IMG/VR virus record: IMGVR_UViG_3300017791_000355
Coordinates: 71,662 to 135,661 of that record
Source of the DNA: a virus
Taxonomy: Duplodnaviria > Caudoviricetes
Strand: one strand, 5' to 3'
Length of the DNA stretch: 64,000 bases
The position numbers and the translations under genes are program-made. Positions 2,812-24,857 of this stretch are shown piece after piece. Every line of letters starts with the position of its first letter. Position 1 is the first letter of the stretch. The notes beneath the pieces are model-generated. The model searched no databases. It was not told the DNA's origin and saw nothing but the letters and a program-made list of their open reading frames with translations.

Positions 2812-4435
2812 CGGACCGGCGCGCGGGCGGACCGCGACACTACGGTCACCACTGGTCGTGCCGCGACAAGAAGTGCGAGGGTTGCTGCCTGGTCGTACCG
2901 ATCGGCGACGACATGAAGTGCACGTGTGACCCGTCGGGACGATGTCCGATCGAGCCGGACTGCGATGCCGGATCGTGCACCGTGTCCGAGGTCCTCGAGT
3001 CCGGACACTCGATCCGATGGCCGTCCGGCGCTATCGCGACCACCGCCGGTCCACGCACGCTCGACCTCGAGGAAGAGCACGACGTGGTGAGGAAGTTACT
3101 GCTCGAGCGCGGGATCGACCCGTGTGCGGGGTGCGCGTCGCGCGGCGCGGAGCCGAAGACCGAGTACTGGACGGAGTGTGGTCACGCGGATGCGTCCGCG
3201 AGAGAGTGCTCGTACCAGTCGGAGATCAACGGCGTCGATCGAACCTGTCTCTGCTGCGACTCGTGCGCGCACGAGTGCGCGATGGACGTGTGATGACCGA
3301 CGAGGACAAGGACTTCTGCTTCATGATCATCATCCCGTTCGGCACGTTCGGGGTGTTCCTCTGGTGCACTCTGTACTTCAACGGAGGCTGCTGATGCCCA
3401 GGCACTCTGACTACGGACTCATCACCGACCTCGACTGCTGGATGCACGAGGCGTGGCCGTCGTTCATGGAGACGATGGAGGGACGTTTGTACGGCGAGTC
3501 GGCACTGAACGCCGCGTGGGCATTCTTCAAGGCGGGTTGGCGTGCCCGTGACAAGGACAAACGATGAACCTCGACCTCAACAACCTTCACTGGTACGGCT
3601 GGGCGCTGCTCGCGATCTCGGCTGCAGGCTTCCTCAACGAGGTCGCGGGCGCGATGCGCTACGTGCGTCGCGGCGACGTCGGCGTGAGCTTCCTCGTGCC
3701 CATCTGCGGCCTGACGATCGTGCTGTACATGCTGGTGTCAGCGTGAAGTTCTCGTACGAGGACTTGAAGGCCTGGTGTGTCCGGATCGTCGAGGGCCCCG
3801 GTGGACTCGAGGACTGGCACAAGTACGAGTGCTTCGGCACCGAGCCCACGACCGTCGAGGTCGTCGAGTGGGTCATCCGCTGCCTGGGGAACCCGAAGTG
3901 CGAGGGCAGCTCGCAGGTCCTCGAGGCGATCGCGGACCGTCGCGAGTTCAAGCAGCGAGGTGGGAAGTGATCTGCACCCACGCGCTCGAGACCGTGTGCC
4001 CTCGGACGTCAGACGGTAGGTACGAGTTCAACGTAATTCGTCAGATTTGGGACGGCATCTGGTACCGCGTGATCGAGTTCGGTCACCCGATCAAGCACTG
4101 CATCGCGTGTGGTCTGCTGCACGGTTACCCGTTCGACCCGCAGTCTCTCCCCCAAACCGACGACGGATTGGCCGACGAACTCGCGCTTTGCGAGGAGGCT
4201 CAGTCATGACCGAACCTTTTGCCTACAGCGTCGATGCGAGTTGGTCCAGCGGAACTTCACGTCGCTGGCACGCTGCCCATCCCAACTCGCCGATTTGGAA
4301 TGTACTCGTAGCTGCGTGCAACGAGTCGCTCGTGCTGAACGAGCACGAATACTACGAGGTCCGTGGCGCACCTCTCGGGTCGCTCTGCCGCACAAAGCAG
4401 TGCACGAAGGCGTTCGGGCTCGTGAAGGTGGCCAA

Positions 4436-22309: not shown

Positions 22310-22310
22310 T

Positions 22311-22349
22311 GTCCAGGAAGAACGCCTGGACCGGGGTCGGAGCTTCCGT
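22311..22349 (-). promoter_or_regulatory. ECF-type promoter/palindrome upstream of the Pol N-terminal gene
   Basis: GGAAG-N19-GTT with a 21-bp palindrome abutting the GTG start. Confidence 0.65.
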
Positions 22350-22747
22350 CAGATCTCCGGGGTCGGCGCGATTTCTCGGACGTGCTCGGGGATCATGCGA
22401 AGACCCTCCTCGAGCGAATCGACGAAGGACCACGACCCGTGTCCCTCGCACGAGCACCCACCATACTCGGCGTGGATGATTCGTCCATCTGGCAGAACCG
22501 CGACCATGTTCGCGTGGTGGTGACCCCAGCCCTCGGAGTCGTCGTAGTGCTCGTAGAGCAGCGCGTAGCCGCCGTCGAGGGCGGTCTGGAGCGCCTGTTG
22601 GGAGCCGCCCAAGTCATTCGTGATGCATCCGTCGGCGCAGGTCCGGTATTCCTGGGGCATCGCAGTCACCTCGAGCACGAGCTCGCGGACGTCGCGGCCT
22701 TCCTTGAGGGCGTCCAGGAGCACGGAGATGAGGTCGTCGCGCGTCAT
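22349..22747 (-). CDS. Hypothetical protein between duplicated promoters
   Basis: 132 aa ORF with YGGCSC, flanked by near-identical 38-39 bp repeats. Confidence 0.6.
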   Translation of the reverse strand: MTRDDLISVLLDALKEGRDVRELVLEVTAMPQEYRTCADGCITNDLGGSQQALQTALDGGYALLYEHYDDSEGWGHHHANMVAVLPDGRIIHAEYGGCSCEGHGSWSFVDSLEEGLRMIPEHVREIAPTPEI

Positions 22748-22785
22748 CCAGGATAGAACGCCTGGACCTGGGTCGGAGCTTCCGT
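22746..22785 (-). promoter_or_regulatory. Duplicate of the 22311-22349 promoter
   Basis: Differs from that copy by one substitution and one inserted base across 22747-22785. Confidence 0.65.
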
Positions 22786-22793
22786 TCAAATAT

Positions 22794-22899
22794 TGCTCAC
22801 AAGAGCCCTTGTCCTACCTTGCCATGCCTAACCCGGCCTTTGCCCAACTTGTCGTGCCACGCCGTGTCACGCCTAGCCTGACCCGGCCCTTGCCCAACC
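22794..22899 (-). ncRNA. Putative guide-like RNA unit B: about 18 GGY/GAC-NN units plus a 3' hairpin
   Basis: Minus strand reads GGTTG GGCAAG GGCCG GGTCA GGCTA GGCGT GACAC GGCGT GGCAC GACAA GTTG GGCAAA GGCCG GGTTA GGCAT GGCAA GGTAG GACAA GGGCTCTTGTGAGCA. Confidence 0.65.
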
Positions 22900-22915
22900 A
22901 ATTCAAATCAGAGAA

Positions 22916-22990
22916 TGCGCACAAGCGCCCTTGTCGTGCCACGCTCCGCCGCGCCGTGCCACGCCGTGCCACGCCTGGCCTGGCCGAGCC
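22916..22990 (-). ncRNA. Putative guide-like RNA unit A: 12 pentamers, mostly GGC-NN, plus a 3' hairpin
   Basis: Minus strand reads GGCTC GGCCA GGCCA GGCGT GGCAC GGCGT GGCAC GGCGC GGCGG AGCGT GGCAC GACAA GGGCGCTTGTGCGCA. Confidence 0.7.
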
Positions 22991-22996
22991 AAAACT

Positions 22997-23509
22997 CTAC
23001 TTACGTGACGCAGCCACGGGCGTCGAACGCTCACGTGGTCGAGGCTCTGGAATCTTGCGCCGTAGTTCACGATTCACGGCAGACACGACGCGTCCTTGGA
23101 CTTCGAGGTCGCGATCGTGCGCGACGACTTCATCGGACGCGAGTTCAGACCGTGGAACGTCCTGCTTGATGGCGAGCGCTCGACGGAGCTTCCGTCGACC
23201 GTTACGAGATGTCTTGGTGCTGTAGGCGCTGGCGCCGGACGCAGTCAAGAGCATCACCCCGACGTCCGAGTCGATCTTGACGGCGACGTGCATTGGAGGG
23301 TCGCGTCTTAACCACTCGGCTTCGACGAGTCCCTTGAGTTGAAGGCACCTGGTGCTGTACTCAGGCGTGTCACGCGTGACTCGGAACATGCGTTCGATCT
23401 CGTGAACCGCGATATGATCACCTCGCTCGAGTCGAGCGACCCGCTGAGCAGGAGTGATCTCCTCTTCGGTCTCAGGCGTGCTCTCGACGGTCTGCAACTC
23501 GAGATTCAT
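22997..23509 (-). CDS. Accessory protein of the RAMP/pentamer-repeat locus
   Basis: 170 aa. Its ATG overlaps the RAMP gene stop, and it ends 6 nt before repeat unit A. Confidence 0.65.
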   Translation of the reverse strand: MNLELQTVESTPETEEEITPAQRVARLERGDHIAVHEIERMFRVTRDTPEYSTRCLQLKGLVEAEWLRRDPPMHVAVKIDSDVGVMLLTASGASAYSTKTSRNGRRKLRRALAIKQDVPRSELASDEVVAHDRDLEVQGRVVSAVNRELRRKIPEPRPRERSTPVAASRK

Positions 23510-24069
23510 CCGATCACCTCGAACCGACCGAACTTCGGTCGCCAGTCGCCGACCCCGGTAATGCCGGAAGTCTCGACGATGTCGACGAGCTGATCGTCGG
23601 ACTTGATGATGGAAGGATCCCACTGCACGTCGAACGTGCACTCCCACGATGGAAAGATCGGTCGCGCGCGAATGACGCGGTTTTGCTTCACCTTGACCCC
23701 AGCAAGCTTGAGGTAGTTTCCGCTATCCCAGAGTCCTTCGACGGTCTTGGGACCCGGATACTGGAGGGCCCAATCACCCTCGATGATGATCCCACCCTTG
23801 ACTTGCTTGCCCAGCGTGAGCTTCCTGGCTCCCTCTTGAAGGGCTCCCTCGAGGACCTCACCGGGTAAGCAAGGCGCGCCCTTGTTGTTCACGTAGAGTC
23901 CGCCATTCCACTCGCACCGGCGAATCTCCAGCAGATCGGCGTCAGTCTTCTTCTTCTTATCGGTCAACTTCTTGAGCGCTCGCGCCATCTCATTCAGAGG
24001 GTCGGCGAGTTGCCCGTTGTGCATGATGAGAGGGGTGAGGCCGCGAATCGTGAACGTGGTGGTCTTCAT
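23506..24069 (-). CDS. Stand-alone Cas7/RAMP-like protein
   Basis: N-terminal strand TIRGLTPLIMHN, LPGEVLEGAL..GAR, VIRARPIFPSWECTF, and a C-terminal Gly-rich loop GITGVGDWRPKFGRFEV typical of RAMP RRM folds. Confidence 0.75.
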   Translation of the reverse strand: MKTTTFTIRGLTPLIMHNGQLADPLNEMARALKKLTDKKKKTDADLLEIRRCEWNGGLYVNNKGAPCLPGEVLEGALQEGARKLTLGKQVKGGIIIEGDWALQYPGPKTVEGLWDSGNYLKLAGVKVKQNRVIRARPIFPSWECTFDVQWDPSIIKSDDQLVDIVETSGITGVGDWRPKFGRFEVIG

Positions 24070-24128
24070 GTAAGCCTTGGAGCGTTGACGTCTTGGCGTG
24101 ATTGCCGTTGTCGTGCTCGCAAGAAGGG

Positions 24129-24155
24129 AACTCCCTGGACAATGCTCCGCTTTCA
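24129..24155 (-). promoter_or_regulatory. ECF-type promoter for the RAMP operon
   Basis: TGAAA-N19-GTT with GTCCAGGG in the spacer. Confidence 0.6.
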
Positions 24156-24168
24156 AAAATCGACCCAA

Positions 24169-24223
24169 TGCTCACAAGAGCCCATGTCTTGTCCGGACCC
24201 GCCACGCCTAGCGACGTCTCGCC
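24169..24223 (-). ncRNA. Putative guide-like RNA unit C (degenerate pentamers plus the same hairpin)
   Basis: Minus strand reads GGCGA GACGT CGCTA GGCGT GGCGG GTCCG GACAA GACAT GGGCTCTTGTGAGCA. Confidence 0.5.
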
Positions 24224-24522
24224 TAGGCCTGCCGTAAATTCGCGTAGTGCGTCAGGATCTCGGCGTGACAGCGCAACGGCGAGCACCAACACGCGAGGAC
24301 CTTCCCCCGGAGCTCGGGCAGCCGAGCCATCAAATCTGCCCGCGACAGGAGGTAGTCCTCGAACCTCGCAATCGCCTCCTCGCGAGTCGCGACCGAGAAG
24401 TGCGCGAGGGTGCCGTCCAGGGGACGATGTGTGTAGGGGTTGCCCCAGTCCGTCGAACGATCGACGAGTACGTCGTACCTCAGGCCGGACCGGACGTTGA
24501 CGACGAGACGGGTGCGGCTCAC
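24223..24522 (-). CDS. DUF4326-family protein
   Basis: Motifs R.T.WGNP...I..F..YL...L..L.GK.L.CWC.P..CHA.IL. Confidence 0.8.
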   Translation of the reverse strand: MSRTRLVVNVRSGLRYDVLVDRSTDWGNPYTHRPLDGTLAHFSVATREEAIARFEDYLLSRADLMARLPELRGKVLACWCSPLRCHAEILTHYANLRQA

Positions 24523-24857
24523 CGCCACCCCTCCGGCAACGTGCAGTTCTCCGGCGCATCCGCGAACAGCGGCGCTATCTCGTCGTCCTTGTAGCCCGCG
24601 TTTATGCACCCTACCCGACACACGTCGAACGTGATCTCGAGGTTGTTCCGCGCGAACGCCTTGAAGCGCTCCACGGACCGCGCGATGTCCTCGAGCGGCC
24701 GAACCCGGAGCGAGTGGTCCTTCGTCGGGATCGCGTACGACCGACCCTGCGGACCCTCGCCGACGCCGTAGATGGCGCCGTGTTCACGCTTCGCGACAAG
24801 CGCGGACCCCTTGCCATGGCGACCCGCGAGGTTCGAGCCGAAGACAAAGAACCTCAC
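24519..24857 (-). CDS. Phage protein with FVFGSN..G.HG.G.A motif (macrodomain-like family)
   Basis: FVFGSNLAGRHGKGSA, YAIPTK and VGC..AGY motifs. Confidence 0.7.
   Translation of the reverse strand: MRFFVFGSNLAGRHGKGSALVAKREHGAIYGVGEGPQGRSYAIPTKDHSLRVRPLEDIARSVERFKAFARNNLEITFDVCRVGCINAGYKDDEIAPLFADAPENCTLPEGWR

Follow-up and report, generated by a model that had tools for sequence, protein, structure and literature searches.

VIPR systems were described in three 2026 preprints (bioRxiv 10.64898/2026.04.26.720920; bioRxiv 10.64898/2026.04.26.720927; bioRxiv 10.64898/2026.10.15.759431). They consist of a Vipr RAMP protein, a vap accessory gene and vrRNAs, the latter being built of 9-16 GGY/NN repeats and a constant 3' tail (bioRxiv 10.64898/2026.04.26.720920). 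The NN dinucleotides pair with double-stranded DNA (dsDNA), one base being skipped per unit, and the systems silence the transcription of competing phages and satellites; seven types are distinguished, and those of Escherichia phage SUSP1 and a Pseudomonas fulva prophage are type II, which carries vap1, the gene of a predicted DNA-binding accessory protein (bioRxiv 10.64898/2026.04.26.720920). The SUSP1 system binds dsDNA on either strand (bioRxiv 10.64898/2026.04.26.720927). The locus analysed here lies in a stretch of 64,000 nucleotides (the window) that covers positions 71,662 to 135,661 of the IMG/VR virus record IMGVR_UViG_3300017791_000355, a genome of 135,661 bp with an estimated completeness of about 90%. 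A first-pass annotation had pointed to a likeness of this locus to VIPR, and the likeness proved real: the system is a published one, and the 187-aa protein of the locus matches the PDB entry 36pp_D, 'SUSP1 Vipr protein', with an E-value of 3.9e-24 over residues 1-185 against 1-187 (phmmer, PDB sequences). Judging from its sequence, we are highly confident that the locus is a VIPR system, and it is probably one of type II. VIPR as a kind is thus not new to science, and the locus is an additional instance of it.

All genes and RNAs of the locus are on the minus strand. The cassette is positioned between a DUF4326 gene and a DNA polymerase gene, where 1.9 kb hold vrRNA-C, vipr, vap, vrRNA-A, vrRNA-B and a 146-aa open reading frame (ORF). 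In the order of that strand the features are as follows.

24223-24621, minus strand: the phage's own DUF4326 gene, LVDR allele class (Pfam PF14216, E 1e-20)
24458-24480, minus strand: site homologous to the guide-C code (RYDVLVDR), within the own DUF4326 gene
24169-24233, minus strand: vrRNA-C, the upstream guide, with 8 guide pentamers, 2 tail pentamers, a G and a hairpin
23506-24069, minus strand: vipr, encoding a 187-aa RAMP/Cas7-like protein, a Vipr homologue
22997-23509, minus strand: vap, encoding a 170-aa accessory protein read as a divergent vap1 type (profile-profile match)
22916-22990, minus strand: vrRNA-A, 11 guide pentamers, the tail unit GACAA, a G and the hairpin GGCGCTTGTGCGCA
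22794-22898, minus strand: vrRNA-B, 18 in-register pentamers in two similar halves, with one terminal hairpin, GGCTCTTGTGAGCA
22349-22789, minus strand: 146-aa ORF between the vrRNA array and the polymerase gene

As in a minimal VIPR locus, two overlapping genes, vipr and vap, are flanked by vrRNAs. The start of vap overlaps the stop of vipr (ATGA), in agreement with the first-pass annotation, and both reading frames are intact. The 187-aa protein is, by homology, a minimal RAMP related to the Vipr family. It matches phrog_4652 (E 8e-49), and neither Pfam nor NCBIfam has a family for it. When it is aligned with seven homologues from phages, its residues H17, K33, E71, R136, D175, W176 and R177 fall on H17, K33, E71, R138, D177, W178 and R179 of SUSP1, i.e. 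on the residues that, according to cryo-EM and mutagenesis, hold G1, G2, Y3 and the skipped target base (bioRxiv 10.64898/2026.04.26.720927). Relatives of the protein are numerous: a search of GenBank phages gave 130 records, the best being from Gordonia and Mycobacterium phages (43-45% identity), and a large protein collection contained 738 relatives at E <=1e-10, all metagenomic and up to 69% identical. The expectation that homologues would have period-5 GGY tracts next to them was confirmed in 16 of 16 loci, with GGY-NN tracts on the vipr strand beside vipr in 7 of 7 GenBank phage loci and tails or tracts in 9 of 9 close metagenomic loci. A close clade of these metagenomic loci shares the tail type of the window.

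A vrRNA is defined by at least 4 tandem GGY-NN pentamers, typically 9-16, and the three tracts found here have 11+1 (unit A), 18 (unit B) and 8+2 (unit C). The tract of unit A (22990-22931) contains 12 in-register pentamers, with GGY in 10 of the first 11, followed by a G and a 14-nt hairpin (22929-22916). The tract of unit B (22898-22809) contains 18 in-register pentamers with an internal duplication and has one hairpin only (22807-22794); its halves each open with GTTGG GCAAR GGCCG GGTYA and close with GACAA, and the first half is without a hairpin of its own. Of the 10 pentamers in the tract of unit C (24233-24184), only 4 are canonical GGY units; the hairpin GGCTCTTGTGAGCA follows at 24182-24169. 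Its NN string is AG TA GA GT TA GT GG CG (8 guide units), after which come the tail pentamers GACAA and GACAT and a G, and its units 1-2 lie over the end of the DUF4326 gene upstream (last codons and stop). The first-pass annotation had described three pentamer units that end in a shared hairpin; the three tracts and three hairpins on the gene strand stand, and unit B turns out not to be simply one unit. It had also let the NN string of unit A end in AA. The closing unit GACAA or GACAT is kept across relatives and therefore belongs to the tail and not to the guide, so that the string of unit A stops before AA. As a side observation, unit B resembles two vrRNAs fused in register, and the whole 118-nt stretch folds better than 200 of 200 shuffles (z -3.6) because its 5' GCAAGGGCC pairs with the tail.

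The tracts are specific to this place. Runs of GGY-NN with at least 5 good units occur only three times on both strands of the 135,661-bp genome (10/11, 6/7 and 5/5), all at the locus; simulations with the same dinucleotide frequencies (n=100) gave at most 5 good units and a mean of 0.24 such runs. The tail motif GGCKCTTGTGMGCA, a 14-nt hairpin element, has 3 copies in the genome, all at the locus and on the gene strand.

Like the published vrRNAs, those of this locus have a constant, structured 3' tail, even though its type differs from the SUSP1 pseudoknot. We aligned 28 units, i.e. the 3 of the window and 25 from 8 related contigs (9-10 loci), and all of them have the tail GACAW-G-GGCKCTTGTGMGCA. 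The helix GCKC-UUGU-GMGC is 98% paired in these 28 sequences, a value equalled in 0 of 500 shuffles, and it contains one covarying pair (U:A 17, G:C 9, C:G 1, U:G 1). An alternative ACAAG/CUUGU helix shows one-sided changes only and no compensatory change; ACAAG/CUUGU and GCKC/GMGC could in principle form a compact pseudoknot jointly. Rfam contains no family for the vrRNAs. We also noticed that every tail hairpin in the clade is followed by a T-rich stretch with a recurring GATTT or TTTGAA-like element (22899-22915, 22765-22793 and 24140-24168 in the window, and in the relatives as well), which may be a termination or processing signal of a kind that a simple terminator scan misses.

The accessory protein is less easily placed. 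It has no match in Pfam or NCBIfam and seemed an orphan in a word-indexed search; an exhaustive HMMER search found 177 homologues, and in 8 close relatives the gene that follows vipr is a homologue of vap, with E-values down to 1e-31. A profile of the 40-sequence vap clade aligned with 6 proteins in the vap1 position (from a SUSP1-type phage, actinophages and Pseudomonas phages) with an hhalign probability of 96.2% and an E-value of 2e-9 over 117 columns. The AF2 model built with an alignment (pLDDT 91.9) combines a small alpha/beta domain at the N-terminus with a long helical hairpin; the single-sequence fold was poor. Fold searches with the model (Foldseek, VIA) gave no significant match, only generic helical hairpins or weak winged-helix regulators, the best Foldseek E-value being 0.2. 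We read the 170-aa protein as a diverged vap1, recognisable by profile comparison only, and it is because of this reading that we regard the locus as type II-like.

The general features can be compared with those of the SUSP1 and P. fulva type II systems. Both have a single Vipr RAMP, about 190 aa long, with the same C-terminal G-loop (GVGDWRPxFGRF) and a thumb arginine, a translationally linked accessory gene of vap1 type, one vrRNA upstream and an array downstream, and GGY-NN pentamers followed by a constant 3' tail; both are phage-borne, and in both a code with a 1-nt skip matches a gene of a rival element in codon register. The differences are as follows. Firstly, the Vipr identity to the SUSP1 type is only about 31%. 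Secondly, the tail has, in place of the SUSP1 pseudoknot, a hairpin of 4 bp whose loop is UUGU and which follows GACAW-G. Thirdly, unit B, with 18 internally duplicated pentamers, exceeds the 9-16 repeats of published vrRNAs. Finally, the carrier is a high-GC phage, and the target family is DUF4326, a term absent from the full text of all three VIPR preprints. By analogy with the SUSP1 work, Vipr protomers would polymerise along the vrRNA, one per pentamer, clamping GGY and presenting NN; the NN would pair with dsDNA in the reading NN-x-NN-x, with one base skipped; and the bound filament would stop transcription, the silencing step being likewise taken over from SUSP1. The vap1-like protein, of winged-helix type, would assist.

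A similar comparison can be made with the Cas7 backbone of Cascade and Csm/Cmr, in which RAMP protomers also polymerise on a guide RNA with a fixed period and the thumb flips bases out regularly. The period is 5 here and not 6, 3 of 5 guide bases are sequestered, and of every three target bases 2 are paired and 1 is skipped. The absence of a CRISPR array from the window and of cas1, both claimed earlier, was corroborated: TRF found no CRISPR-like array in the 64-kb window and Cas1 is missing from the genome, the remaining cas families not having been searched one by one. A repeat-spacer array with a multi-subunit cas operon, as expected of class 1 CRISPR-Cas, is lacking (TRF, Cas1 search, ORF map), and no Cas5/6/8/10/11 or adaptation genes were seen.

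Of the three guides, that of vrRNA-C could be decoded. Read as codons (NNx), it spells [S/R]-Y-[D/E]-V-Y-V-G-R, a conserved motif of DUF4326. When compared with 17 DUF4326 loci of IMG/VR, it matched at least 13 of 16 NN positions in 9 and 14 of 16 in 4 loci, at the homologous YDVY[VI]GR motif; 300 shuffled versions of the guide gave a mean of 0.25 loci (at most 3) at 13/16 or better and a mean of 0.03 at 14/16. The signal is obtained with a skip of 1 only, not with 0, 2 or 3, and the other guides give nothing. Hence the 1-nt-skip code is recovered here by computation, for guide C alone, and the idea that the NN string encodes a discontinuous target is supported by this one guide. In the three closest YVGR genes (contigs L203, L204 and L205) the match rises to 15/16, with a second-best site of 12 or less; the sole mismatch is an arginine codon, CGC instead of AGR, and units 2-8 fit in 14 of 14 positions. 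Three related contigs, L203, L204 and L206, are collinear with the window, with polymerases 64-84% identical (64-69% in L203 and L204). L203 and L204 have no VIPR between DUF4326 and the polymerase gene, and in both DUF4326 stands directly upstream of the latter on the same strand; L205 is a short contig that ends in DUF4326, from which only this gene and those upstream could be read, and no VIPR was seen in that part either. The computation shows a guide aimed at the RYDVYVGR-coding stretch of DUF4326 in related contigs without VIPR at that locus. A single exact match of guide C in IMG/VR (L048), the only one, falls in no DUF4326 reading frame and was taken as a chance event.

DUF4326 proteins have been proposed to be rhodanese-phosphatase-type enzymes that act on ADP-ribose phosphates in virus-host conflicts (PMC9503650). 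Since DUF4326 is predicted to process ADP-ribose phosphates, it is probably a counter-defence gene. The proteins that we compared (P0271-P0290) fall into two classes according to an N-terminal motif, YDVY[VI]GR(G/P) and YDVL[VI]DR(S/T)T, and both are widespread; the tyrosine and glycine that separate the classes are otherwise invariant in 13 DUF4326 members of IMG/VR. The carrier's own allele is of the LVDR class. One may think that it was recoded to escape its own guide; we reject this explanation, as LVDR is an old and widespread class that is also found in a sister phage without VIPR at the locus.

The likely targets are sister phages and not the host, so that of the two proposed roles, silencing of host or of competing phage genes, the second is the one that the guide C match favours. 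A roadblock in a rival's DUF4326 would plausibly shut off DUF4326 and perhaps the polymerase operon. We speculate, tentatively and as one possibility that deserves serious attention, that the cassette is an allele-specific exclusion module among sister phages: guide C would read the RYDVYVGR class and spare the LVDR class of the carrier, and, when bound in a rival that co-infects the cell or is already resident, it would stop transcription from running through DUF4326 into the polymerase genes. The carrier would then be protected by its linked LVDR allele. If this is true, we are dealing with a linked 'guide plus resistant allele' pair, which in its logic is like a killer-immunity pair.

The main rival to this explanation is that guide C does not attack rivals and is an autoregulator, which would bind the phage's own DUF4326 gene in spite of three mismatches and so tune the operon running into vipr. 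The unique best match of the guide in its own genome is in fact the adjoining DUF4326 gene, in codon register at the motif RYDVLVDR, about 240 nt upstream and on the same strand. The score of 13/16 amounts to 81% over 8 units (70% over 10 units) and so reaches the cut-off of at least 80% NN match used for natural targets (bioRxiv 10.64898/2026.04.26.720920). This score is, however, also the best that chance would give anywhere in a genome of such size (null mean 12.5); the nearest LVDR sister has 12. The other allele class fits better, as its 15/16 in three contigs and its complete fit over units 2-8 show, neither base of unit 5 matches in the own gene, and self-targets at 80% or more were not found in the VIPR papers (bioRxiv 10.64898/2026.04.26.720920). 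We consider autoregulation unlikely.

Another alternative is that the systems of this clade recognise RNA transcripts and not dsDNA, for which there is a general precedent among RAMPs only (type III CRISPR). Against it stands the dsDNA binding of the SUSP1 system on either strand. Moreover, guide C and the DUF4326 mRNA share the same sense, so that the guide is unable to pair with this mRNA and would pair with the template DNA. RNA recognition thus appears very improbable.

Guide C has a parallel in the solo vrRNAs of the SUSP1 family and F5 satellites (bioRxiv 10.64898/2026.10.15.759431), where the guide is also aimed at a gene of close relatives and NN also falls on codon positions 1-2, therefore no escape by synonymous change is available. 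The guide discussed here differs in that it is part of a complete VIPR locus, that its target is a putative ADP-ribose-processing gene and not vipr or a recombinase, and that the carrier has a naturally resistant allele class of the targeted gene adjoining the guide.

Several points count against the interpretation given so far. The type II assignment is based on vap1 homology, layout and pairwise similarity to type II members, not on the phylogeny of the VIPR authors. Minimum free energy folding of the tail is undistinctive, and the tail is a simple hairpin in place of the SUSP1 pseudoknot. A scan of the locus found neither a sigma-70-type promoter nor a canonical intrinsic terminator. Guides A and B have no convincing target, 4 of the 8 guide units of C are not GGY, and self-regulation keeps some ground because the own-gene match lies at the published natural-target threshold. 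Some of these points, namely the degenerate unit C and two of three guides left without an identified target, together with a unit B that looks fused or duplicated with a hairpin lost, would also suit the view that the pentamer tracts are decaying or non-functional, be they slippage products or remnants of an inactive cassette, and that the protein has another role. But the NN vary while GGY stays the same, 12 and 18 units follow one another without a break of register, and the tail shows conservation and compensatory change in 28 units from 10 loci. In guide C the NN fit the target motif even in the units that are not GGY, and the vipr and vap frames are intact, with conserved RNA-binding residues equivalent to the catalytic site. 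We therefore find decay hardly credible.

The searches with guides A and B can be described briefly. With 0-3 skipped bases nothing in the own genome scored above shuffled guides (best 67%); the self matches found with a skip of 3 are the vrRNA genes themselves and are trivial. The exact 11-unit pattern of guide A occurs 0 times in IMG/VR and 0 times in the JGI metagenomes. No match with up to 3 mismatches was found in a Kofleriaceae metagenome-assembled genome (MAG; see below) or in an 88-kb viral record, and 401 genomes of the phylum to which this MAG belongs had none at up to 2 mismatches. When sub-windows of eight units were taken from guide A, there were 17 and 34 matches in IMG/VR. The best match of guide A (22 of 24 NN positions, SQYVTVTAGVTY) is at residue 594 of a tail protein, in a CBM_4_9-like domain, encoded on a viral contig of 43% GC (L115:10538-12961, minus strand); about 0.2 matches as good as this are expected by chance. 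Three guide A matches lie within one tail-protein family (phrog_5939), and at the CBM_4_9 site in L115 the QYVTVT part is also matched by the first half of guide B. The tail-protein domain is nevertheless unsupported as a target, since 80 members of the family showed no family-wide match. In the target search with the first half of guide B (8 units) there was one match, which looks like chance. No cross-targeting was seen between the guides of the window and 47 fetched loci, or between 8 guides from three related loci (L008-L010) and the phage genome.

In terms of significance, VIPR has so far been studied in enterobacterial and Pseudomonas phages, and the locus extends it to a lineage of large environmental phages of high GC that has hundreds of relatives in metagenomes. 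This lineage is characterised by a simpler tail, a strongly diverged vap1 and an unusually long composite unit. The decoded guide C provides a concrete, testable natural target, i.e. one DUF4326 allele class in syntenic sister phages, and the own allele, with 3 differing guide-read bases, is a natural matched control for the mismatch tolerance of the gapped code.

Other genes of the window include a terminase, a VapE-type primase-helicase, a C5 methylase and a helicase. Attempts to identify the host through terminase, polymerase and primase led to distant phage relatives only. The contig L203 (JBQCJR010000765.1), 10 kb long, collinear with the phage and of the YVGR class, was binned in a Kofleriaceae (Myxococcota) MAG of 8.3 Mb (G001), and the terminase of the phage resembles its counterpart in Myxococcus phage Mx4 at about 31%. 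We take this as a weak hint at Myxococcota as the host group.

Between DUF4326 and the polymerase gene the sister phages have a variable cargo slot (22310-24222 in the window, L203:2912-3382, L204:4325-4385 and L206:691-2758). It contains VIPR and the 146-aa ORF here, a 108-aa ORF in L203, 62 nt without a gene in L204, and an RCC1-repeat gene with two small ORFs in L206. The 146-aa ORF has no Pfam or NCBIfam match and no similarity to the ORF at the same position in L203, and it falls in a stretch that is absent from the sister phage L204.

Finally, the vrRNA tails of actinophage VIPR loci contain GGTTCGAnTCC, which resembles the T-arm of tRNA. This was seen in the Mycobacterium phages LittleE and prophiBWHA-1 and in the Gordonia phage Trine (L002:2245-2290 and 2370-2415; L003:2359-2400; L004:3182-3230 and 3291-3345), and ARAGORN calls an odd 'tRNA-???' over one of the Trine tails. 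The text of the main VIPR paper does not mention tRNA. Such a tRNA-like tail could recruit RNase P/Z or the CCA-adding enzyme for 3' processing. In Trine, the coding sequence of 267 aa annotated as gene 40 (L004:3079-3882) runs across two vrRNA tracts (3122-3290); the gene probably starts a good deal further downstream, in the part that aligns with other vap1 proteins.

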